In this document: one piece after another, positions 2,557 through 64,000 of the stretch
How the letters are laid out: each line of letters opens with the position of its first letter
How positions within the stretch are numbered: the stretch's first letter is position 1
NCBI RefSeq assembly: GCF_009931435.1
Contig: NZ_CP043414.1
Origin: Escherichia coli
GTDB lineage: Bacteria; Pseudomonadota; Gammaproteobacteria; Enterobacterales; Enterobacteriaceae
Length of the DNA: 64,000 nt
Direction: 5' to 3' (one strand)
Translations under genes and position numbers: made by a program
Notes under the pieces: generated by a model
Told to the model about the DNA's origin: nothing
The model's database searches: none
Seen by the model: only the letters and a program-made list of their open reading frames with translations

Positions 2557-3270
2557 ATGCGACACATTTTTCAACGATTATTGCCCCGACGGCTATGGCT
2601 GGCAGGGCTGCCATGTCTGGCATTGCTGGGTTGCGTGCAGAGTCACAATAAGCCAGCTATTGATGCGCCAGCAGAAGAAAAAATTCCGGTTTATCAACTG
2701 GCTGACTATCTTTCTACTGAATGCAGCGACATCTGGGCACTGCAAGGTAAGTCAACCGAAACCAATCCGCTTTACTGGCTGCGGGCGATGGATTGTGCTG
2801 AACGTTTAATGCCTGCGCAGTCGCGTCAGCAAGCCCGCCAATATGACGACGGCAGCTGGCAAAATATCTTCAAACAAGGGATTTTGCTCGCTGACGCCAA
2901 AATTACGCCTTATGAGCGCCGCCAGCTGGTCGCGCGCATTGATGCGTTAAGTACCGAGATCCCGGCACAGGTTCGCCCACTGTATCAACTCTGGCGCGAA
3001 GGTCAGGCGCTGCAACTGCAACTGGCGGAAGAGCGCCAACGCTACAGCAAACTCCAGCAGTCCAGCGACAGCGAACTGGATACTTTACGCCAGCAACATC
3101 ACGTTCTACAGCAGCAACTGGAACTCACTACCCGCAAGCTGGAAAACCTGACCGATATTGAACGCCAGCTCTCGACTCGCAAACCGGCTGGCAATTTCTC
3201 GCCGGATACGCCGCACGAGAGTGAAAAGCCCGCGCCATCTACCCATGAGGTCACTCCTGATGAGCCATAA
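2557..3270 (+). CDS. qseG: Outer-membrane lipoprotein QseG (YfhG)
   Basis: 237 aa from the ATG at 2557; N-terminal signal with LLGC lipobox and a coiled-coil-like Q-rich C-terminus; located between glrK and glrR. Confidence 0.8.
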   Translation: MRHIFQRLLPRRLWLAGLPCLALLGCVQSHNKPAIDAPAEEKIPVYQLADYLSTECSDIWALQGKSTETNPLYWLRAMDCAERLMPAQSRQQARQYDDGSWQNIFKQGILLADAKITPYERRQLVARIDALSTEIPAQVRPLYQLWREGQALQLQLAEERQRYSKLQQSSDSELDTLRQQHHVLQQQLELTTRKLENLTDIERQLSTRKPAGNFSPDTPHESEKPAPSTHEVTPDEP

Positions 3271-7845: not shown

Positions 7846-7948
7846 ATGCCGAATGCGGCGTGAACGCCTTATCCGGCCTACAAATTATTGCAAATTCAAG
7901 ATATTGCAATCTCCGTGTAGACCTGATAAGCGTAGCGCATCAGGTAAT
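7846..7948. repeat. BIME: two REP elements in inverted orientation
   Basis: gccgaatgcggcgtgaacgccttatccggcctac followed by the inverted copy gtagacctgataagcgtagcgcatcaggta. Confidence 0.7.
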
Positions 7949-8005
7949 TTTTCGTTTGTGATCATCAAGGCTTCCTTAGGGAAGCCTTGTTACGTTATCG
8001 CGTCA

Positions 8006-18254: not shown

Positions 18255-18291
18255 ATGCCGGATAAGGCGTTCACGCCGCATCCGGCATCTT
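18255..18291. repeat. REP element
   Basis: atgccggataaggcgttcacgccgcatccggcat fits the REP consensus. Confidence 0.6.
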
Positions 18292-18293
18292 TC

Positions 18294-18716
18294 CTAACGC
18301 CGATCGAGAGAAATTGCCCCCGGCCCGGTAATTGCCAACAGCAGGAATGCGCCAGCGATACTGACATTCTTCCAGAAATTAATCATATTTGGCCCAACCG
18401 CATCGCCGGTCATATCCCAGTAATGGTGACCAATCACCGCCGTACCCAGCGTGTAGAAAATAAACAGCACCGCCAGCGGACGGGTGAAAAAGCCAAGCAC
18501 GATTAAAATCGCGGCGGGCACTTCCATAACTACCGCAATAATCGCTGCCAGCATCGGCATTGGCGCGCCCAGCGAGGCCATATATTGGACCGTACCGTCA
18601 AAGCCCATCATTTTGGGAAAACCAAAAATAATGAAAATTAAGACCACGGCGATACGGGCAATTAATAACAAAACGGGGCGTGCAACACCAAAATCAAAAT
18701 AACGTAGTGAGTTCAT
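18294..18716 (-). CDS. yphA: DoxX-family inner membrane protein
   Basis: 140 aa from [10 protein letters not shown] (AAGGGA RBS); hydrophobic; the ORF track extends 15 codons further upstream. Confidence 0.8.
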
Positions 18717-26819: not shown

Positions 26820-27674
26820 TTAGTTCTGCGGATTCAACGCGCTAAGGATAAAATCCACTATTTGTTCGCGATAAACATCACCGTGACGATCGGAAAAAGC
26901 ATCAATGTGTTCGCCGTCAGGGATTAAGATTAAACGTTTTGGCTCTTTTGCCAGATCATACAACTTTTGGCTGTGCTGCCATGGGATAACGTGATCGGCC
27001 TTACCGTGAATGAGTAAAACTGGGATCGGGCTGACGCTGGCGATGTAATTTTCGCCGCTGTAACTCTCATCAAGTAAGTAGCCACTGCCGGGGATCATCT
27101 GGTTGGCAATGGTTGCATAAGAGGCAAATGTGGAGTCGAGGATCACTGCACGTATGCCCTCACGATCCCCCTGACCAACGACATCAAGAATATTCGCCCC
27201 GCCAATACTCTGCCCGAACAGCACCAGTCGTTGTTGGTTTACATCACTGCGATGGCGCACCACATTGATGGCACTTAGCGTATCGTCCAGCAATCCGGCC
27301 TGAGACGGTGTGCCTTTTGATTTACCAAACCCGCGATAATCAAACATAAAAACGTTGAAATTACGCTCGGGTAACCAACTGACCAGCGGCCAGTGGGCGG
27401 ACATATTTCCGGCATTGCCGTGAGCATGAATGATGGTTGCGATGGCGTTGTCAGCGGGGCCTGTCGAAGAAGGGATAAACCAGCCTTGCAGACGAGTACC
27501 GTCCTTAGCTGTAAATTCGACGGATTCCGCCGACCAGGGGTCGGGACCGTAAATTTTGTCGTCGGGATAATAGAAGAAGTTGATGGCAACGCGCGGCACT
27601 AAATAAACGCAGAAGACAACAACAAAGAGAATAAACAGAATTTTGAGAACGCGTGTGTTCACTGGCAGTGCCAT
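26820..27674 (-). CDS. yfhR: Alpha/beta hydrolase (S9 peptidase-like)
   Basis: 284 aa from MALPVNTRV with AGGAAAGG RBS; GQSIGG nucleophile-elbow motif; an alternative start at 27701 would add 9 aa. Confidence 0.8.
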   Translation of the reverse strand: MALPVNTRVLKILFILFVVVFCVYLVPRVAINFFYYPDDKIYGPDPWSAESVEFTAKDGTRLQGWFIPSSTGPADNAIATIIHAHGNAGNMSAHWPLVSWLPERNFNVFMFDYRGFGKSKGTPSQAGLLDDTLSAINVVRHRSDVNQQRLVLFGQSIGGANILDVVGQGDREGIRAVILDSTFASYATIANQMIPGSGYLLDESYSGENYIASVSPIPVLLIHGKADHVIPWQHSQKLYDLAKEPKRLILIPDGEHIDAFSDRHGDVYREQIVDFILSALNPQN

Positions 27675-27818
27675 AACCTTTCCTTGCGACTTCTTTATCA
27701 TCCATTAATCGGGGAAAGATGGTGGGAGAGTGACGAAAGAAAGTAAAGCAGAGCGGAAGCATTTCGGAATAGCGCCTGAAAGGCGAGGGCGGGTGAGAGA
27801 AATCACCCGCCAGAGAAA

Positions 27819-28622
27819 TTAACGCTTCAGGGCGTCGCTTAACTCGTCACGCATGTTCGCCAGCATGGCTTTAACAACGCGCGGGTTACCGGCAACGATG
27901 TTACCGGTCAGCATGTAGTTATGACCACCGGTGAAGTCGCTGACGATACCGCCCGCTTCACGAACCAGCAGCTCACCTGCGGCGAAATCCCACGGACGCA
28001 GACCGATTTCAAAGAAACCGTCAACACGACCTGCGGCAACGTAAGCCAGATCCAGCGCCGCAGAACCAGTACGACGGAAGTCTGCACATTCGTTGAACAG
28101 TTTGCCGACGATGTTGATGTAAGTGGTAGCGTACTGTTTTGCTTTGAACGGGAAGCCGGTCGCCAGAATAGTACCGTCGAGATCGCGAGCGGTGCTGCCG
28201 CGCAGACGGTAGCCGTTCAGCTGTGCGCCCTGACCGCGAGTCGCGGTGAACAGTTCGTTACGCATAGGATCATAAACCACAGCAACTTCAGTGCGGCCTT
28301 TGATACGAACGGCAATAGATACCGCGAAGTGCGGCAGGCGTTTGATAAAGTTGGTAGTGCCATCCAGTGGATCGATAACCCATTGAACATCCTGATCGGT
28401 ACCTTCAAGTTCACCGCTTTCTTCGGTGATGATGGTGTGCTGTGGGTAAGATTTACGAATCGTGTCGATAATCACCGCTTCGGCAGCTTTATCTACGTTG
28501 GTCACGAAATCGTTACTGCCTTTCTGGCTCGCTTCTACAGCGTCCGGGGTTTCATAGTTTTTGGCAATTAAATTACCCGCCTTGCGCGCTGCGCGCACGG
28601 CGATGTTCAGCATCGGATGCAT
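27819..28622 (-). CDS. suhB: Inositol monophosphatase family protein SuhB
   Basis: 267 aa; IMPase motifs DPLDGT and WDFAAG. Confidence 0.95.
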   Translation of the reverse strand: MHPMLNIAVRAARKAGNLIAKNYETPDAVEASQKGSNDFVTNVDKAAEAVIIDTIRKSYPQHTIITEESGELEGTDQDVQWVIDPLDGTTNFIKRLPHFAVSIAVRIKGRTEVAVVYDPMRNELFTATRGQGAQLNGYRLRGSTARDLDGTILATGFPFKAKQYATTYINIVGKLFNECADFRRTGSAALDLAYVAAGRVDGFFEIGLRPWDFAAGELLVREAGGIVSDFTGGHNYMLTGNIVAGNPRVVKAMLANMRDELSDALKR

Positions 28623-28740
28623 CGGTCTCTCTCACTGGATGTTAAAGAACGGGAAAACGGCGCAGAGTATAGCAGCGAGATCGGCATCTGTCTTCGTTTT
28701 ATGATAAGATGCGTGAATAATCTTTAGATGAAGAAAGACA

Positions 28741-29478
28741 ATGCTGCAAAATATTCGAATTGTGCTGGTGGAGACGTCACACACCGGTAATATGGGTTCT
28801 GTTGCCCGTGCCATGAAAACAATGGGCTTAACCAATCTGTGGCTGGTTAATCCACTAGTGAAACCTGACTCCCAGGCGATTGCTCTGGCAGCAGGGGCCA
28901 GCGATGTGATTGGTAATGCTCACATTGTCGATACACTCGACGAAGCGTTAGCCGGTTGTAGCCTGGTGGTTGGCACCAGTGCACGCTCGCGCACGCTGCC
29001 GTGGCCGATGCTCGACCCGCGCGAATGCGGTTTGAAAAGCGTCGCTGAAGCGGCAAATACGCCGGTGGCACTGGTTTTTGGTCGTGAGCGTGTCGGCTTG
29101 ACCAATGAAGAGTTGCAAAAGTGCCATTATCATGTCGCCATTGCCGCTAACCCGGAATACAGTTCGCTGAACCTGGCGATGGCTGTTCAGGTTATTGCCT
29201 ATGAAGTGCGCATGGCCTGGCTGGCGACTCAGGAGAACAGCGAGCAGGTTGAACATGACGAGACGCCGTATCCGCTGGTCGATGATCTGGAACGTTTTTA
29301 CGGTCATCTTGAACAAACGCTGCTGGCAACCGGTTTTATCCGTGAAAACCATCCGGGGCAGGTGATGAATAAGCTACGTCGTCTGTTTACCCGTGCGCGC
29401 CCGGAAAGCCAGGAGTTGAATATCCTGCGCGGGATTCTGGCTTCTATTGAGCAGCAGAATAAAGGTAATAAGGCCTGA
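28741..29478 (+). CDS. trmJ: tRNA (cytidine/uridine-2'-O)-methyltransferase TrmJ
   Basis: 245 aa SpoU/TrmH-family methyltransferase; K-12 synteny upstream of iscR. Confidence 0.9.
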
Positions 29479-29507
29479 GGGCTAAGCCAGATAAGTGCAC
29501 GGACGGT

Positions 29508-29545
29508 CCCCTCGCCCCTTCGGGGAGAGGGTTAGGGTGAGGGGA
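29508..29545. repeat. GC-rich imperfect palindromic intergenic element
   Basis: tcccctcgcccc ttcg gggagaggg ttagggtgagggg: nested inverted repeats in the trmJ-iscR spacer; family not confidently identified. Confidence 0.3.
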
Positions 29546-29645
29546 ACAGGCCAGCGCTAATGCGAATAATTGCCCTCAACCCGCTCATGGTCTGGAAGGA
29601 CAACAGGTACAAACGCCACGATAAAAAAATGGCACTGAAGGTTAA

Positions 29646-29700
29646 ATACCCGACTAAATCAGTCAAGTAAATAGTTGACCAATTTACTCGGGAATGTCAG
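29646..29700 (+). promoter_or_regulatory. iscR promoter with IscR type-1 autoregulatory sites
   Basis: ATACCCGACTAAATCAGTCAAGTAA and AAATAGTTGACCAATTTACTCGGGAAT fit the IscR type-1 pattern ATASYYGACTRwwwYAGTCRRSTAT. Confidence 0.6.
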
Positions 29701-29778
29701 ACTTGACCCTGCTATGCAATACCCCCACTTTTACAATAAAAAACCCCGGGCAGGGGCGAGTTTGAGGTGAAGTAAGAC

Positions 29779-30267
29779 ATGAGACTGACATCTAAAGGGC
29801 GCTATGCCGTGACCGCAATGCTTGACGTTGCGCTCAACTCTGAAGCGGGCCCGGTACCGTTGGCTGATATTTCCGAACGTCAGGGAATTTCCCTTTCTTA
29901 TCTGGAACAACTGTTTTCCCGTCTGCGTAAAAATGGTCTGGTTTCCAGCGTACGCGGGCCAGGCGGTGGTTATTTGTTAGGCAAAGATGCCAGCAGCATC
30001 GCCGTTGGCGAAGTAATTAGCGCCGTTGATGAATCTGTAGATGCTACCCGTTGTCAGGGTAAAGGCGGCTGCCAGGGGGGCGATAAATGCCTGACCCACG
30101 CGCTGTGGCGTGATTTGAGCGACCGTCTCACCGGTTTTCTCAACAACATTACTTTAGGCGAACTGGTTAATAACCAGGAAGTGCTGGATGTATCTGGTCG
30201 TCAGCATACTCACGACGCGCCACGCACCCGCACACAAGACGCGATCGACGTTAAGTTACGCGCTTAA
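29779..30267 (+). CDS. iscR: Fe-S cluster assembly transcriptional regulator IscR
   Basis: 162 aa Rrf2-family regulator with a C-terminal cysteine cluster. Confidence 0.95.
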
Positions 30268-30277
30268 TTTAACCGTC

Positions 30278-30390
30278 CTGTTTCGTGTTGCATCTGCGTT
30301 GACTGCACATACTCACTCCGGTCACTTACTTATGTAAGCTCCCGGAGATTCGTAAGTTTGTCAACTTGCTGAAACCCGAAACAGTTAGGT
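30278..30390. repeat. ERIC/IRU-like imperfect palindrome in the iscR-iscS spacer
   Basis: Reverse complement reads GAATCTCCGGGAGCTTACATAAGTAAGTGACCGGAGTGAG, close to the ERIC core GTGAATCCCCAGGAGCTTACATAAGTAAGTGACTGGGGTGAGCG; flanked by the inverted repeat ctgtttcg ... cgaaacag. Confidence 0.55.
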
Positions 30391-30507
30391 TAAAGATAAC
30401 AAGATATTAGAATCAGGCCGGGGCGTATCGCGCTCCGTAAACACGGTCGTACATCCAGCCGGTAGCCTGGTTCCTTGCATTGAGTGATGTACGGAGTTTA
30501 TAGAGCA

Positions 30508-31722
30508 ATGAAATTACCGATTTATCTCGACTACTCCGCAACCACGCCGGTGGACCCGCGTGTTGCCGAGAAAATGATGCAGTTTATGACGATGGACGGA
30601 ACCTTTGGTAACCCGGCCTCCCGTTCTCACCGTTTCGGCTGGCAGGCTGAAGAAGCGGTAGATATCGCTCGTAATCAGATTGCCGATCTGGTTGGCGCTG
30701 ATCCGCGTGAAATCGTCTTTACCTCTGGTGCTACCGAATCTGACAACCTGGCGATCAAAGGTGCTGCTAACTTTTATCAGAAAAAAGGCAAGCACATCAT
30801 CACCAGCAAAACCGAACACAAAGCGGTACTGGATACCTGCCGTCAGCTGGAGCGCGAAGGTTTTGAAGTCACTTACCTGGCACCGCAGCGTAACGGTATT
30901 ATCGACCTGAAAGAACTCGAAGCAGCGATGCGTGACGACACCATCCTTGTTTCCATCATGCACGTAAATAACGAAATCGGCGTGGTGCAGGATATCGCGG
31001 CTATCGGTGAAATGTGCCGTGCTCGTGGCATTATCTATCACGTTGATGCAACCCAGAGCGTGGGCAAACTGCCTATCGACCTGAGCCAGTTGAAAGTTGA
31101 CCTGATGTCTTTCTCCGGTCACAAAATCTACGGCCCGAAAGGTATCGGTGCGCTGTATGTGCGTCGTAAACCGCGCGTACGTATCGAAGCACAAATGCAC
31201 GGCGGCGGTCACGAGCGCGGTATGCGTTCCGGTACTCTGCCTGTTCACCAGATCGTCGGGATGGGCGAAGCCTATCGCATCGCAAAAGAAGAGATGGCGA
31301 CCGAGATGGAACGCCTGCGCGGCCTGCGTAACCGTCTGTGGAACGGCATCAAAGATATCGAAGAAGTTTACCTGAACGGTGACCTGGAACACGGTGCGCC
31401 GAACATTCTCAACGTCAGCTTTAACTACGTTGAAGGTGAGTCGCTGATTATGGCGCTGAAAGACCTTGCGGTTTCTTCCGGTTCTGCCTGTACGTCAGCA
31501 AGCCTCGAACCGTCCTACGTGCTGCGCGCGCTGGGGCTGAACGACGAGCTGGCACATAGCTCTATCCGTTTCTCTTTAGGTCGTTTTACTACTGAAGAAG
31601 AGATCGACTACACCATCGAGTTAGTTCGTAAATCCATCGGTCGTCTGCGTGACCTTTCTCCGCTGTGGGAAATGTACAAGCAGGGCGTGGATCTGAACAG
31701 CATCGAATGGGCACATCATTAA
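30508..31722 (+). CDS. iscS: Cysteine desulfurase IscS
   Basis: 404 aa from [16 protein letters not shown]; PLP-lysine region [12 protein letters not shown] and active-site SSGSACTS. Confidence 0.95.
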
Positions 31723-31749
31723 TCGGTATCGGAATCAGGAGAATTTATA

Positions 31750-32136
31750 ATGGCTTACAGCGAAAAAGTTATCGATCATTACGAGAATCCGCGTAACGTG
31801 GGTTCCTTCGACAACAACGACGAGAACGTGGGCAGTGGCATGGTGGGTGCACCGGCCTGTGGCGACGTGATGAAGTTGCAGATTAAAGTCAACGATGAAG
31901 GTATCATTGAAGACGCGCGTTTTAAAACTTACGGCTGCGGTTCCGCTATCGCTTCCAGCTCCCTGGTCACCGAATGGGTGAAAGGGAAGTCTCTCGACGA
32001 AGCACAGGCGATCAAAAACACCGATATTGCTGAAGAACTTGAACTGCCGCCGGTGAAAATTCACTGTTCTATTCTGGCAGAAGACGCGATCAAAGCCGCC
32101 ATTGCGGACTATAAAAGCAAACGTGAAGCAAAATAA
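31750..32136 (+). CDS. iscU: Fe-S cluster scaffold IscU
   Basis: 128 aa; conserved Cys residues and the LPPVK motif. Confidence 0.95.
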   Translation: MAYSEKVIDHYENPRNVGSFDNNDENVGSGMVGAPACGDVMKLQIKVNDEGIIEDARFKTYGCGSAIASSSLVTEWVKGKSLDEAQAIKNTDIAEELELPPVKIHCSILAEDAIKAAIADYKSKREAK

Positions 32137-35680: not shown

Positions 35681-36964
35681 ATGACAGAAGCGATGAAGAT
35701 TACCCTCTCGACCCAACCTGCCGACGCGCGCTGGGGAGAAAAAGCAACTTACAGCATTAATAATGACGGCATTACCCTGCATTTGAACGGGGCAGACGAT
35801 CTGGGGCTGATCCAGCGTGCGGCGCGCAAGATTGATGGTCTGGGCATCAAGCATGTTCAGTTAAGCGGTGAAGGCTGGGATGCGGATCGTTGCTGGGCAT
35901 TCTGGCAAGGTTACAAAGCCCCGAAAGGCACGCGTAAAGTGGAGTGGCCGGATCTGGACGATGCCCAGCGTCAGGAACTGGATAACCGCCTGATGATCAT
36001 CGACTGGGTGCGTGACACCATCAACGCACCAGCAGAAGAACTGGGGCCATCGCAACTGGCACAGCGTGCTGTTGATCTGATCAGCAACGTCGCAGGCGAT
36101 CGTGTGACTTACCGGATCACCAAAGGTGAAGATCTGCGCGATCAAGATTATATGGGGCTGCACACTGTCGGGCGTGGTTCAGAACGTTCCCCGGTATTGC
36201 TGGCGCTGGATTACAACCCAACTGGCGATAAAGAAGCGCCGGTGTACGCGTGCCTGGTAGGTAAAGGCATCACCTTTGATTCCGGCGGCTACAGCATCAA
36301 ACAGACCGCGTTTATGGACTCAATGAAGTCTGACATGGGCGGTGCGGCAACGGTTACCGGGGCGCTGGCATTTGCCATTACGCGCGGTCTGAACAAGCGT
36401 GTGAAGCTGTTCCTCTGCTGTGCGGATAACCTGATTAGCGGCAACGCGTTCAAACTGGGCGATATCATTACCTATCGCAACGGTAAAAAAGTCGAAGTCA
36501 TGAACACCGATGCGGAAGGGCGTCTGGTTCTGGCAGATGGCCTGATTGACGCCAGTGCGCAGAAACCGGAACTGATTATCGATGCCGCGACACTCACCGG
36601 GGCGGCGAAAACCGCGCTGGGTAATGATTATCACGCATTGTTCAGTTTTGACGATGCGCTTGCCGGTCGCTTGCTGGCGAGTGCTACACAAGAGAACGAA
36701 CCGTTCTGGCGTCTGCCGCTGGCTGAATTCCACCGCAGCCAGCTGCCATCTAACTTTGCGGAACTGAACAATACCGGAAGCGCGGCGTATCCGGCGGGTG
36801 CAAGTACGGCGGCGGGCTTCCTGTCGCACTTTGTTGAGAACTATAAACAAGGTTGGCTGCATATCGACTGTTCGGCGACTTACCGTAAAGCACCAGTTGA
36901 ACAGTGGTCTGCGGGTGCGACCGGGCTGGGTGTGCGCACGATTGCTAATCTGTTAACGGCGTAA
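35681..36964 (+). CDS. pepB: Peptidase B (M17 leucyl aminopeptidase family)
   Basis: 427 aa from [10 protein letters not shown] (AAGGA RBS); M17 signature NTDAEGRL. Confidence 0.9.
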
Positions 36965-36970
36965 ACTAAT

Positions 36971-37075
<105 letters not shown>

Positions 37076-37106: not shown

Positions 37107-37883
37107 ATGTCCGAAACAAAAAACGAACTTGAAGACCTGCTGGAAAAAGCAGCAACCGAACCGGCGCACCGCCCGGCCTTTTTCCGTACTCTACTGGAAT
37201 CCACTGTCTGGGTACCAGGTACGGCGGCGCAGGGCGAGGCAGTGGCTGAAGATAGCGCGCTTGATTTACAGCACTGGGAAAAAGAAGATGGCACCAGCGT
37301 TATTCCTTTTTTTACCTCGTTAGAAGCACTTCAACAGGCGGTTGAAGACGAACAGGCATTTGTCGTAATGCCCGTTCGCACATTGTTTGAGATGACCCTT
37401 GGCGAAACGCTCTTCCTTAATGCCAAACTGCCAACCGGTAAAGAATTTATGCCGCGTGAAATCAGTTTGCTGATTGGTGAAGAAGGGAATCCGCTGAGCA
37501 GTCAGGAAGTACTGGAAGGCGGTGAATCGCTGATATTATCGGAGGTCGCAGAGCCGCCAGCACAAATGATTGATTCACTTACCACCTTATTTAAAACCAT
37601 TAAGCCGGTGAAGCGTGCTTTTATTTGTTCAATTAAAGAGAACGAAGAGGCACAGCCTAATTTACTTATTGGCATTGAAGCTGATGGCGATATCGAAGAA
37701 ATTATTCAGGCGGCGGGAAGTGTAGCGACCGATACATTACCTGGTGATGAACCAATCGATATTTGCCAGGTGAAAAAAGGGGAAAAAGGAATTAGCCACT
37801 TTATTACCGAACATATTGCGCCATTCTATGAACGTCGCTGGGGTGGATTCCTGCGTGATTTTAAACAAAATCGGATAATTTAA
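37107..37883 (+). CDS. sseB: Serine sensitivity enhancing protein SseB
   Basis: 258 aa from MSETKNELEDLLEKAA; K-12 synteny. Confidence 0.8.
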   Translation: MSETKNELEDLLEKAATEPAHRPAFFRTLLESTVWVPGTAAQGEAVAEDSALDLQHWEKEDGTSVIPFFTSLEALQQAVEDEQAFVVMPVRTLFEMTLGETLFLNAKLPTGKEFMPREISLLIGEEGNPLSSQEVLEGGESLILSEVAEPPAQMIDSLTTLFKTIKPVKRAFICSIKENEEAQPNLLIGIEADGDIEEIIQAAGSVATDTLPGDEPIDICQVKKGEKGISHFITEHIAPFYERRWGGFLRDFKQNRII

Positions 37884-37889
37884 AATATG

Positions 37890-38372
37890 CCGCCCAAAGG
37901 GCGGCATTCGGGCTTACTTGCTGTTCTGAAGGTTGTTAACCATCAGTAAATTGTTGCCGGAGGGACTCCGGTTATTATTTACCTCGGTTAACAGCGCACC
38001 AGAAACAATAAGTACGATACAGAAGTACCGTATCTTCATTGTGCGGTCCATGCGAAGACCGCATCACGACAGCACCACTGGCGATATTGCCGCGATAGCA
38101 AGCGCTGTGGGGTGCCTGCATTTACGGTCATGGAACATCCTTTCCTAAAGCCAGCGCCCGTTTGCGAGACGGCGAAAAGGGCCGTCACGAATAATACTCT
38201 CATATTTGAATAATTACTCTATTTATTATCTTGACTTGGCCAGGCATAAAAGAGAGTATTTCAACACTGTGGGGTGCCTGCGTTGCTCCGGCAACACAAG
38301 TCAACCTGCTGGAAAGGCCGCGAACCAGACCAGCAATAAAAAACCGCCAAATTCGGCGGTTTTTTATTGCCT
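37890..38372. ncRNA. ryfA: sseB-sseA intergenic region corresponding to the K-12 ryfA sRNA locus (strand and boundaries not resolved)
   Basis: About 490 bp non-coding gap in the K-12 ryfA position; hairpins near both ends (about 37887-37915 and 38340-38372) and the motif ctgtggggtgcctgc present twice (about 38104 and 38268). Confidence 0.35.
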
Positions 38373-49921: not shown

Positions 49922-51040
49922 ATGCATAACCAGGCTCCAATTCAACGTAGAAAATCAACACGTATTTACGTTGGGAATGTGCCGATTGGCGATGGTGCCC
50001 CCATCGCCGTACAGTCCATGACCAATACGCGTACGACAGACGTCGAAGCTACGGTCAATCAAATTAAGGCGCTGGAACGTGTTGGCGCTGATATCGTCCG
50101 TGTCTCCGTACCGACGATGGACGCGGCAGAAGCGTTCAAGCTCATCAAACAACAGGTTAACGTGCCGCTGGTGGCTGACATCCACTTCGACTATCGCATT
50201 GCGCTGAAAGTAGCGGAATACGGCGTCGATTGTCTGCGTATTAACCCTGGCAATATCGGCAATGAAGAACGCATCCGCATGGTGGTTGACTGTGCGCGCG
50301 ATAAAAACATTCCGATCCGTATTGGCGTTAACGCTGGATCGCTGGAAAAAGATCTGCAAGAAAAGTATGGCGAACCGACGCCGCAGGCGTTGCTGGAATC
50401 TGCCATGCGTCATGTTGATCATCTCGATCGCCTGAACTTCGATCAGTTCAAAGTCAGCGTGAAAGCGTCTGACGTCTTCCTCGCTGTTGAGTCTTATCGT
50501 TTGCTGGCAAAACAGATCGATCAACCGCTGCATCTTGGGATCACCGAAGCGGGTGGCGCACGTAGTGGGGCAGTAAAATCTGCCATTGGTTTAGGCCTGC
50601 TGCTGTCTGAAGGCATCGGCGACACGCTGCGCGTATCGCTGGCGGCCGATCCGGTCGAAGAGATCAAAGTCGGTTTCGATATTTTGAAATCGCTGCGTAT
50701 CCGTTCGCGCGGGATCAACTTCATCGCCTGCCCGACCTGTTCGCGTCAGGAGTTTGACGTTATCGGTACGGTTAACGCCCTGGAGCAACGCCTGGAAGAT
50801 ATCATCACCCCGATGGACGTTTCGATTATCGGCTGCGTGGTGAATGGACCAGGTGAGGCGCTGGTTTCTACACTCGGCGTCACCGGCGGCAACAAGAAAA
50901 GCGGCCTCTATGAAGATGGCGTGCGCAAAGACCGTCTGGACAACAACGATATGATCGACCAGCTGGAAGCGCGCATTCGTGCGAAAGCCAGCCAACTGGA
51001 TGAAGCGCGTCGAATTGACGTTCAGCAGGTTGAAAAATAA
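49922..51040 (+). CDS. ispG: 4-hydroxy-3-methylbut-2-en-1-yl diphosphate synthase
   Basis: 372 aa; C-terminal [4Fe-4S] Cys motif CPTCSR ... GCVVNGPGE. Confidence 0.95.
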
Positions 51041-51150
51041 TAACGTGATGGGAAGCGCCTCGCTTCCCGTGTATGATTGAACCCGCATGGCTCCCGAAAT
51101 ATTGAGGGGCGCGTTGAGGGTTCATTTTTATATTCAGAAAGAGAATAAAC

Positions 51151-59676: not shown

Positions 59677-62600
59677 ATGTCGGTATGTCTGAAACCAGGG
59701 AAAATCATTATGCTTCTGGGCATGTTGGCAGCTTTTATGCTGTCTGACTTTGCACGGGCAGGGGCGGAATGGCAGACATATCCTGATTCTACAGGCGAGT
59801 TTAACGGAACCGTTCCTTTTGCCGACAGCGCCAGCGTACCCGTCTATCAGGGCAGTGTTCAGCTTAATCCTGCTGAATCTCATGATGTCGGGTTTTCTGC
59901 TAAACCGAATGAATTTAGTGTTGACGATGACGCTGCTAACCTGATTGTTGCTAATCCTCAGGACAATGAAGGCGACCAGTTTTCCACACCACCTGCGCTG
60001 CGCTGGGAAAATCAAACACCCCCTACCGTCAGCCTGGTGTGGGCCGATGCCGCCACGCCCGATGTGCCCCTTAACCCACAACCCATTGCTAACCGTAGCT
60101 TTTGCGCTCAGGGGCTCGCCGGACGCTCGCTGGTGGCCTGGCCGCAGATTGATGCGCAGCAAACCCTCCCACTGCTCTACCTGCTGACCTCGACCGGGTA
60201 TCCCTATGCGGGGACGGTGGCGCTGGTGGACCAGAAAGTGACCCTGAACATCGCGCCCGCGCAGGGCGATTTAATCTCGGTGAGCGCCAGCGGTTATAAC
60301 GAAACGATCGCGGCGGCAAAAACCACCGTTGGCGACACCATCACGCTCACCGTCACCACTAAAGATTGTCAGGGCAACGTCGCGGGTAATATTCCGTTTA
60401 TTATCAAACGTAAAGATGCTGAAAATCGCCAGGGGGCAGTGAATAATAGTGCGCCAGTGGTACTGGATAGCACCGAGTTAACGACGACGGCTACCGAATA
60501 CCATGGCACCTCTGATTCCAACGGCACGGCCACCATCACGGTGAGCCAACCGAACGGCCCTGGTGTCAAAACGCCACTGGTGGTCAGCATTTCCGGCATT
60601 GCGCAAACCAGCGAAACCGCAGTGATTTTTACCGTACTCACCAGCCCGGACGTGGCGCAGGCTACGATGTGGGGCCATATGGCGGAGACGGTAGAAGCCC
60701 ACGGTTACACCTTCAGTCGACCAAAGCTGGCGGCAGAAGTCAGCAATGAAAGCGCCACGGTTGTCGATCATAACGAAACCTGGTCCACCTTCACCTGGAG
60801 CGGCGCAGATAGCCACTGCACCGTGCTGCCCGGCATGCGCCACTTCGGCGCGCTGGCGACCGTTATCCCCACGTCGGTGCAGACAGCCCTTGGCTGGCCG
60901 ATGCAGGGGGATTATTACTGGTCATCGCTGGCGGGCACCACCGGGCAGCACCATGCGGCGGATGTCTCTAACCGTAGTGAAACGCAAAAGCCGGATAGCA
61001 CCCCGTTTCTTGTGAGCTGCGTGGATAAACCCGCGCCTGATGTCGAACCGAAAATCGTCCTTACGCCCGAAAACTATGATGATACGGCACAGGCGATGAA
61101 ATCGCAGGTGGGCGAAGACGCCACGATGCGTCTGACGATCACCGACAATAAAAATAACGATCAACCACTGGCGTATTACTACTTCTCGCTGCATCTGGAT
61201 GACGGCGTTAACCGCAAAAATCAAACCGATTCCGCCTGGGAAGCCCATCCGGTGCAGATTACTGGTGGTTCGAATTTACAACAGGTTGATGCTCACACCT
61301 ATGAAGGCATGACCGATGTCAACGGTCAGGCTTCGCTAACCCTGAGTCAGCCCGACGGCGCAGGCGTGAAAACCCATATCACGGCGAAAATGCGCAGCAA
61401 TTTTACGGCTACAGATGCCAAAGACGTGATTTTTACTGTGATCACCAGCCCGGACAGCGACAAGGCGCGGATGTGGGGCCATATGCGCGGCATTGTTGTA
61501 TCTGGCAGTCTGTTCAAACGCCCAGTGCTGGCGGATGAAACTGAGCATGAACTGGGATCGGTGCGGGAAAATGACGAAGACTGGGCGCTGTTCGATCAAG
61601 ACACCAGTATGCAGGCTGAATGCGGCGTCGGCCATACGCCACGTCAGAGTGGGCTGGAAAGCCTGTTTTCAGCCCATCCCGGTAACGCGATTGGCACTGA
61701 GTATGGCTGGCCCACCGCCCAACAGAGCTACTTAAGCGCGGTGGAGCAAGCCACGCATTCATCGGTGAATCTGGGGAACGGAAACGTCGACAGCTACTCC
61801 GGCTTTAAGCAGAATTACCTCTCCTGTTCGGGCAATGAGATGGTAGCGAAGGTTGAAGTCAGCACCGATCACGATATCACCCCTGGCAGCAAAGCGCAGG
61901 CCAAAGTAGGTGACACCATCGTGATGACCGTGCGTACGATTAACGCGCTCAATAATACCCCGGTACCCTTTACTGCATTCACCATTACCAAAGGCATGGG
62001 GTATAACCGAGCGGGGCTGGTGAGCGGGTTTGATGACCCGAGCAGCGGCGCAATCTCGATGAATGGCACGCAATACGGCACATCACAGCCGTCGATGGTC
62101 TACACAGGTACGACAGATGCACAAGGCGTGGCAACGGTCGAAATAGAGCAACCCCAGGGGGTGGGGTTAAGAACCGTGCTGAGCATTACGCCGGTCAATT
62201 CCCATCTACCAAATGCCATTAATTACAATGTTATTTTTACCACCCCAACCAGCCCGGATGTTAGTGGGGCGCAGATGTGGGGCCATATGGATGAAACGAT
62301 TACCGTTGATTCATTAACCTTTACCCGGCCTAAGCTGGCAGCAGAAATCGCCAGTCCGGATGGCACACTAACGGAAAAAAACGAAGTCTGGGCGCGCGTT
62401 AGCCAGGCCAGTACGGCCATTACCAGTAAAGGCGGTTGCGGAACCAATATGCTGCCGCGCCGCTCCCAGCTCAGTGCGCTTTATGACGCTAATAACGGTA
62501 ATGCGGTGCAAGCCACACACGGCTGGCCGACGCAGCGTCAGCCCTACTGGAGCAGTTCCCCCGCGGATTTAACGCCGCACAATTACACCATTGCCCTGGA

Positions 62601-64000
62601 TAACGGCGCACAGGCCATCGGCGGCGATACGCCGGTTTACGTCAGTTGCCTGACGACGGCGAACAAACCTGCCAGCAGCATTACGCTGGATGTGGTTGAT
62701 AACGCACAGTGGGCTGCCGGAAATAACGCGGCGAAGCTGAAAAAAGGCGAAACGCTACGGGTTAAGGTAACGGTAAAAGATGCGCAGGGTAATCCGCTCA
62801 CGGATATGCCATTTAAACTGAGTCGCGGAGACGGTTATACCCGCACGGGCGAAAAACATATTGCCGGTAGTGGCGATGCGCTGGTGGCACCGGTGGTGAT
62901 TAACAGTGGGCTGGCGGATGAAACGACGTTGAACGACACCGCGGGATTTTATACTGCCATGACCGGTAGCGACGGCAGCAAAATCCTCAATATTACCCGC
63001 CCGGATACTCACGGCACCAAAACGGCGCTGACGGCGACGTTGTATTCCGATCCAACAAAAAAAGACAGCCTGGATACAATCTTTACTGTGGTCACCAGCC
63101 CGGATAGTAGCAAAGCGAAAATGTGGGGGCATATGCCGGAAACGGTGACGGCTGCGGACGGTACGGTATTTAAACGCCCGCTGTTGTTGAAGGAACTGGC
63201 CTATCAGACTGGGCGAACATCGACGTCTGAAGACAATGAAAACTGGGCGTTGTTTAACATTAATTATGCGAGTTCTTCCACGACGTATAGTGGCTGTGGA
63301 ACCAACTATATTCCGACTCAAGCCGGTCTGACGTCACTGTTTGCTAATAATGCGGGCAACACCATGAAAACCGTGCAGGGCTGGCCGGTGGCAACACGCT
63401 ATTTGTCCAACACGTCCGACAACGGCAGCATGGAGCAGCGTAACTACAAGGCGGTAGATCTCAGCAATGGCACGAGTGCGGCAGTGTCATCAACGGCGCT
63501 GCAACTGCTGACCTGCCAGACCACGCCGGTAACCACGGTGGGCCAAATTCTGCTGGAAGCGGCAGATCCGGCGACGCTGGATACCACCTATAACGTGGTA
63601 AAAGCGAAAAAAGGCGAAGAATCCGTGGTGCGCGTCACCACCAAAGATACGCAAGGCAACCTGGTGGGCAATACGGCATTTATCCTGACGCGTGCCAACA
63701 GCGTGAGTCGGGCTAACGCATCAGCAACCGCGAGCGTGGGCGCGCTGACGGTGACGGATGCTTGGGGAAATACGCGAAATAATTTCCAGTCGACGAGTGA
63801 AACGATTTACGGCGTGACTGGTGCAGACGGGTCAACGACATTTACCCTGAAACAGGATAACAGTACCGGGTTAAGAACCGATCTCACGGCAAAACTGGAT
63901 ACGTCCAGCAGCGTCAAGGCGACGCTACCGGTGGTCTTTACTGTCGTGACCAGCCCGGATTCGCCAAAAGCGAATTTTTGGGGACATATGGCCGAAACGG
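59677..64000 (+). CDS. ratA: Giant modular secreted/surface protein, RatA/RatB-like (5' partial; continues past window end)
   Basis: Single open frame with no stop from about 59677 to 64000 (at least 1441 codons), not in the ORF track because it has no in-window stop; signal peptide; repeated modules with the motif [VI][VI]FT..TSPD......WGHM. Confidence 0.75.
60500..64000 (+). repeat. Tandem protein-coding modules within ratA (period about 804-855 nt)
   Basis: Anchor motif starts at about 60622, 61426, 62230, 63076 and 63931, giving 268, 268, 282 and 285 aa spacing; flanking residues diverge, so the duplication is old. Confidence 0.65.

Follow-up and report, generated by a model that had tools for sequence, protein, structure and literature searches.

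The G+C-rich palindrome in the trmJ-iscR spacer of the Escherichia coli DNA analysed here (64,000 nt, hereafter the window) is one copy of the known BoxC/PIT/TMECO repeat family, real but ordinary. We hold with good confidence that this copy, of type A with one mismatch (type A mm) and lying in the remnant of a ~120-bp composite, has most likely no dedicated role in trmJ or iscR expression and is a structure-prone repeat in a permissive gap. Three readings were offered for the palindrome in the initial annotation, and only that of a dispersed repeat is supported, while those of a trmJ terminator and of a protein-binding site are not.

The genes around the palindrome are arranged as suhB (−), trmJ (+), iscR (+) and iscS, with 300 bp between trmJ and iscR. 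The nested inverted repeats described earlier at 29500-29560 are indeed present there: the sequence at 29508-29544 consists of three blocks, CCCCTCGCCCC-TTC-GGGGAGAGGG-TTA-GGGTGAGGGG, the first of which is complementary to both G-rich blocks (29509-29544 can also be written CCCTCGCCC-CTTCGG-GGGAGAGGG-TTA-GGGTGAGGG-G). In an inverted-repeat search and in folds, block 1 and block 2 make a 10-position stem with one G·A mismatch and a 3-nt loop, and block 1 and block 3 make 11 pairs including one G·T (91% complementary). The motif is intergenic, starting 30 nt past the trmJ stop codon and ending 234 nt ahead of the iscR ATG, and the trmJ stop codon is itself supplied by an allele-specific segment. 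The folding energy is modestly unusual for the composition (z = −2.15 and −0.99 for RNA of the + and − strands, respectively, and −1.55 for a DNA 43-mer; RNA MFE −37.3 kcal/mol for the 91-nt context on the + strand), and as a plain hairpin the palindrome is not exceptional for its G+C richness; what sets it apart from chance is the pattern and its repetition, rather than the energy of the fold.

Table 1. Features of the trmJ-iscR region in window coordinates, with the basis of each assignment.
Feature	Position	Strand	Basis or remarks
trmJ CDS, 245 aa, ending GNKA before the stop	28741-29478	+	
Allele-specific 123-bp segment replacing the BIME of K-12-type strains; contains the trmJ stop TGA (29476-29478)	29476-29598	+	Alignments, population counts
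Stretch homologous to E. coli paralogous copies	29489-29586 (about)	+	83-90% identity, alignment
BoxC/PIT/TMECO motif, type A (TTA second loop), one-mismatch form	29509-29544	+	Exact consensus match; identical 36-mer in Holder Table S8
Block 1, pyrimidine-rich (C-rich) arm CCCCTCGCCCC	29508-29518	+	Pairs with block 2 or block 3
Block 2, purine arm GGGGAGAGGG; in the triplex model it is Watson-Crick paired with block 1	29522-29531	+	Sequence, DNA fold
Block 3, GGGTGAGGGG; would-be third strand, antiparallel to block 2	29535-29544	+	Sequence; class II triplex model, PMC4666352
Family spacer between the two composite arms, AACAGGCCAGCGCTAATGCGAATAA	29545-29569	+	Aligns to AACAGGCCAGCACTGGTGCGAATAA in six paralogues
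Decayed remainder of the type-B arm (inverted), TTGCCCTCAACCCGCTCATGGTCTGGAAGG	29570-29598	+	Alignment against intact right arms; inverted-repeat search
iscR upstream/leader region	29599-29778	+	Identical to K-12; common to Enterobacteriaceae from ~29631 on
iscR CDS	29779-30267	+	

The assignment to the family comes from its published consensus. TMECO, a G/C-rich intrastrand triplex motif of E. coli, is defined by 5′-CCCTCNCCC N3-6 GGGNGAGGG N3 GGGNGAGGG[GTC-]-3′, with 27 specified bases (Holder et al., Nucleic Acids Res 2015, PMC4666352). This consensus has one exact match in the window, at 29509-29543 (+) and followed by a G at 29544, with none on the minus strand and 0 in 100 shuffles; together with the three-block Y-R-R layout, the exact match identifies the palindrome as a TMECO/BoxC family member. 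Subtypes are named from the second loop, TTA for type A and CCG for type B, with 'mm' for one mismatched triplet, and type A with one mismatch is the commonest subtype in K-12 (PMC4666352). Here loop 2 is TTA (29532-29534), and A26 of block 2 faces G14 of block 1, which makes the copy type A mm. When block 3 is placed antiparallel to block 2, inspection shows eight G·G, one A·A and one T·A combinations, all ten of them allowed in the purine motif, and the sequence of the motif is compatible with the class II purine-motif triplex proposed for the family.

The same sequences have passed under the names BoxC (1990s), PIT (potential intrastrand triplex, 2000) and TMECO (PMC4666352). PIT elements (Hoyne/Maher 2000-2002, as summarised in PMC4666352), for which inverted A+B pairs were already noted, are the same sequences under another name, with no known difference. 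BoxC dates from the early 1990s, when it was given as a GC-rich repeat of 56 bp with ~32 copies in E. coli (as cited in PMC2267715), and Petrillo et al. list it at 50-56 bp and 22-32 copies, a size class and copy number that agree with the 17-19 BLAST places per genome found here, in which pairs are merged. We take the window element to be equivalent to BoxC on the strength of Holder's statement and of the flank and spacer common to its paralogues. It resembles the published TMECO in its exact consensus, its type A mm form, its intergenic position and its strain-variable locus, and differs in that it is absent from K-12, hence outside the 23 K-12 copies of PMC4666352, even though the motif itself is identical, and in that its inverted partner is decayed rather than intact.

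Among the catalogued repeat families that had been proposed for comparison, boxC fits, and the element has neither a REP pattern nor an ERIC core. REP/BIME sequences are likewise small, intergenic, hairpin-forming and dispersed, but REP is a two-arm palindrome (GCCGGATGCGGCGTGAACGCCTTATCCGGCCTAC-like) of unrelated sequence, whereas BoxC is a Y-R-R motif in three blocks. Protein partners are known for REP, and none is known for BoxC. ERIC/IRU is also a dispersed enterobacterial intergenic repeat, of ~127 bp, but differs in sequence and structure. The variable segment of the window's trmJ-iscR spacer gave no match to the REP-like pattern, compared with 18 pattern matches in the K-12 allele. An Rfam scan of 28600-30400 by E-value returned at the element only a chance-level match to Antizyme_FSE (E = 1.1; 18.4 bits, with a gathering score of 40), a scan of the whole window at the gathering threshold had no match at the element, and the K-12 annotation of the trmJ-iscR spacer shows no repeat features. 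In the literature after 2015 on BoxC or E. coli intrastrand triplexes, only the unrelated 'boxC' of rRNA antitermination was found.

The locus had in fact been catalogued. Table S8 of Holder et al. lists, for O157:H7 Sakai, TMECO no. 29 at NC_002695 3383056-3383021, a 36-mer identical to window 29509-29544 (PMC4666352). We computed the Sakai orthologue at 3383191-3383156 in NC_002695.2, with both ends offset by exactly 135 nt from TMECO no. 29; such a constant offset is consistent with a shift between record versions, and the two are almost certainly the same element, judging from their sequence and position. In the supplements of that study the locus was not found under the gene names iscR, trmJ, yfhQ or suhB, and was found by motif sequence. 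The family is therefore known, and so is the locus; what is new is minor, namely an account of the composite remnant, the frequencies of the BoxC and BIME alleles at the locus, the exchange of stop codons and a comparison of the site between genera.

The element is multi-copy, not single-copy, in a sequence search of complete E. coli genomes (medians of 17-19 places per genome), which, with the exact consensus match, bears out its early reading as a member of a dispersed repeat family. A 71-mer query found 96,053 places in 5,425 of 5,426 genomes (median 19 per genome, range 2-35), and a 161-mer query at E ≤ 1e-3 gave a median of 17 places per genome over the 5,426 genomes and 19 places in K-12 MG1655. 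Published motif counts are ~11-29 per strain, with 23 in K-12, where five inverted close pairs occur (PMC4666352); the 19 K-12 places agree with these 23 motifs. Within the 64-kb window no second copy was found with up to 3 mismatches allowed.

We fetched and aligned six paralogues (gcvP-ygfF of K-12, recA-recX, barA-gudD, yijF-gldA, fepB and alx), whose matches span positions 30/34-122/127 of the 161-mer query. In these the complete repeat is a composite of ~120 bp, made up of a conserved left flank (TGATGACAA...AAAAGTGCACGGACAG), the type-A motif, the spacer AACAGGCCAGCACTGGTGCGAATAATTA and, inverted, the type-B motif CCCTCACCCCGGCCCTCTCCCTGAAAGGGCGAGGGG. The window copy aligns to all six at 83-90% identity over its flank GTGCACGGAC(A/G)G, its motif and its spacer, and this sharing of flanks and spacer indicates that the family matches are not driven by composition. 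The arms of the paralogues are inverted repeats of 24-39 nt, and the palindromy of the composite beyond the two motifs is weak (~50% by eye). The window copy retains the flank, the type-A motif and the spacer, with its right arm reduced to a stub in which only the first block is recognisable. Compared with shuffles, an intact K-12 composite folds with z = −5.18 and the truncated window copy with z = −0.80, no better than chance. Decay of such a kind at paired sites has been described (PMC4666352).

At the trmJ-iscR locus E. coli has two alleles that share their boundaries. The BoxC allele was found in 1,431-1,432 of 5,426 genomes (26%), at 98-99% identity and including O157:H7 and O111:H8, and the non-BoxC genomes (74%), viewed in a 60-row spread, have a BIME with one to three REP pairs between the same boundaries. 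In that spread the BIME allele spans 293/294, 384 or 475 nt versus 321 for the BoxC allele, and none of the 60 rows has an empty site. In K-12, with a spacer of 451 bp, a BIME with three REP pairs (2790-3083 of the K-12 locus, L001) takes the place of 29476-29598; homology to the window restarts at GACAACAGGTACAAACGCC, and the last 180 nt before iscR are identical. The BIME alleles of L001, L009 and L010 differ in their number of REP pairs, which is one, two or three at a period of ~91 bp and gives spacers of ~269, 360 or 451 bp. The allele also determines how trmJ ends: in BoxC alleles with ...AAGGCC TGA (245 aa, ...GNKA and stop; window 29473-29478), and in BIME alleles with ...AAGGCC GAA TAA (246 aa, ...GNKAE and stop). 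Since E. albertii has the GAATAA and BIME form, the BoxC segment probably took the place of an older arrangement and did not simply insert. Across suhB-trmJ-iscRS (27000-31800) the window is 96-97.5% identical to the E. coli genomes compared and ~93% identical to E. albertii (97.5% being the best E. coli match over 4 kb), and the best match to the 321-bp locus among complete E. coli genomes is 98.8%. Such values may point to a divergent lineage of E. coli or to a close relative.

The same site was then viewed in other genera. A TrmJ scan of species-representative genomes gave 80 loci, in 66 of which both the trmJ stop and the iscR-upstream anchor AAATACCTGACTAAA could be placed. The stop-to-anchor segment in these 66 measures 6-341 nt (median 91.5); it has REP-like sequence in 37 and neither a REP-like nor a triplex-motif pattern in 25, with a few segments of only 6-15 nt. 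Pseudocitrobacter (L024, L025 and L029; 2242-2329) has a triplex-motif pair in the opposite arrangement, type A (−) followed by type B (+), two Enterobacter species (L062 and L064; ~2241-2275) have a single type-B motif directly past trmJ, two Klebsiella species match a relaxed pattern, and in several genera almost no sequence lies at the site. The 5′ flank of the type-A motif, GCAC..G.C.GTCCCC, remains conserved between genera, and two Enterobacter-like genomes (L083, 426-563, and L085, 455-566) have inverted triplex-motif pairs ~1 kb upstream of trmJ, past suhB. The element is thus dispensable across taxa. With a BIME in 74% of E. coli, and with REP sequences, triplex motifs or almost nothing in other genera, the site past trmJ appears to be a permissive landing zone, and the BoxC element would be dispensable for iscR control.

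What is known of the family bears on how such a locus could arise. A single strand forms an intrastrand triplex in vitro, as published for type A and type B oligonucleotides with or without a mismatch; the double-stranded form gives no triplex, and in vivo DMS footprinting gave no sign of one (PMC4666352). PIT elements block DNA polymerase in vitro and had no in vivo effect in the assays tried in an earlier functional study (cited in PMC4666352). TMECO loci are markedly more strain-variable than control intergenic regions, and what has been published to tie triplexes to instability is a correlation and not a demonstrated mechanism (PMC4666352). At trmJ-iscR the G-rich strand is the sense strand of both genes and, once single-stranded, would fold into a hairpin or, as published in vitro, a purine-motif intrastrand triplex. 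Judged by gene strand and map position in the syntenic K-12 and Sakai genomes, this strand probably serves as template for lagging-strand synthesis and is the non-template strand in trmJ transcription, which would provide two situations of transient single-strandedness. Folding during replication or repair is the proposed reason for small intergenic rearrangement hot spots, and its visible outcome here may be the two-allele polymorphism of BoxC segment and BIME together with the decayed partner arm. The repeat would then sit in a permissive gap that separates the trmJ stop codon from the conserved control region of iscR, with local sequence turnover as its main consequence. Structure would be the cause of the instability, and the element is most likely functionally neutral at this locus. 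The fit to active instability of the window copy is nevertheless poor, the allele being stable and nearly invariant (98-99%) in ~1,430 genomes.

Other explanations are less probable. As an intrinsic (Rho-independent) terminator of trmJ, it would halt RNA polymerase before the iscR promoter region, for which it is well placed, lying on the sense strand just past the stop codon as a stable RNA hairpin (energies as above), and a + strand scan found no other terminator-like site between trmJ and iscR. There is, however, no T/U run behind the stem (AACAGGCCAGCGC), and the K-12 gcvP-ygfF copy has a separate canonical terminator (AAAGGCGCTTCGGCGCCTTTTT) ahead of the composite. A promoter and terminator scan found nothing at the element itself; the scan also missed the real iscR promoter, so that its negative promoter result carries little weight. 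Moreover, PIT elements had neither promoter nor terminator activity in the functional study cited in PMC4666352, and copies of the family occur in both orientations and upstream of ORFs more often than downstream (PMC4666352). We therefore consider the terminator proposed for trmJ in the initial annotation very unlikely. The other function proposed there, a protein-binding site upstream of the iscR promoter, or more generally a regulatory protein-binding or structural DNA element modulating that promoter, is suggested by its position upstream of iscR and by the ability of non-B DNA to affect nearby promoters, but appears highly improbable: the downstream end of the element is 234 nt from the iscR ATG and ~85 nt from the start of the block that other genera share; most other genera lack the element, some Enterobacteriaceae having only 6-15 nt at the site, as do the 74% of E. 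coli genomes that have a BIME there with an identical 29599-29778 region; and no binding protein is reported for the family (PMC4666352). That the G-rich strand forms a G-quadruplex instead of a triplex would concern the structure formed and not the identity of the element. GGGG-AGA-GGG-TTA-GGG-TGA-GGGG (29522-29544) does fit the canonical four-tract G3+N1-7 rule, but the NMR imino-proton pattern of the full oligonucleotide indicates a well-defined triplex and not a G-quadruplex (PMC4666352), and the conserved C-rich block 1 would have no role in the latter, which makes it hardly probable. The same G-rich strand at 29522-29544 also contains the GGGTTAGGG core.

The main live rival, still an unlikely one, is that the element acts as a 3′-UTR stabiliser or insulator, a REP/BIME-like stem-loop that would block 3′-to-5′ exonucleases and protect the upstream trmJ mRNA. 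Protection of mRNA by stem-loops is established for the REP family. The RNA hairpin of the window copy is stable, two unrelated structured repeats, the BoxC composite and the BIME, share boundaries in E. coli, and REP-like or triplex-motif sequence is found at the site in most other genera. On the other hand, the 25 of 66 outgroup loci with neither pattern, a few of them reduced to 6-15 nt, indicate that a structured element is not required, and the motifs are unrelated to gene function, distance or operon position (PMC4666352). As to neutrality, BIME and BoxC are both strong stem-loop formers directly past the trmJ stop, and other genera usually have a structured repeat there as well, so that the site might owe its occupants to selection for a structured 3′ end and not be neutral. 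A bolder proposal, to which we give a low probability, is that the post-trmJ gap is under selection for some stable stem-loop repeat, with BoxC composites and BIMEs functionally interchangeable, for instance in shielding the 3′ end of trmJ mRNA or in insulating the iscR promoter from trmJ. If so, the exact-boundary swap between BoxC and one to three REP pairs, and the independent occupancy of the site by triplex motifs in Pseudocitrobacter and Enterobacter, would amount to convergent recruitment and not neutral landing, and this would be the first cellular role for BoxC.

The window has further repeats and RNA genes. An ERIC/IRU-like insertion of 129 bp (30268-30396, core CACTCCGGTCACTTACTTATGTAAGCTCCCGGAG) lies inside the iscRSUA transcript ~700 nt downstream of the BoxC element, between the iscR stop (30267) and the Rfam 'iscRS' stability element (30397-30506, 118 bits). 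K-12 is without this insertion (111-bp spacer); a copy at ≥99% identity is present in 489 E. coli records, with a median of 7 places per genome at ~70-73% identity, and weak Rfam matches to CssrA, V_AS5 and RmaA overlap it. Ordinary REP/BIME copies are at 414-444, 7846-7949, 18257-18302 and 36957-37074, and sRNA genes at the Rfam gathering threshold are GlmY (723-870), ryfA (37882-38185) and sroE (51040-51131). At 60626-64000 a conserved 66-nt segment is present five times, at intervals of 804-855 nt, in an array cut by the end of the window. It points to a very large gene for a repetitive protein downstream of der, where K-12 is not known to have one.

Returning to the reading we favour, a BoxC copy in a composite remnant most likely without a dedicated role, the correct annotation of the palindrome is a BoxC/TMECO repeat remnant, neither a terminator nor an iscR operator, and otherwise the distinction matters little. 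The locus is a tidy natural example of the family, a strain-variable patch with a decayed inverted partner and an unrelated repeat, the BIME, as its other allele. Moreover, the repeat swap alters the last codons of trmJ, and the two natural alleles make a pair suited to testing the effect of BoxC and BIME on the 3′ end of a neighbouring gene.
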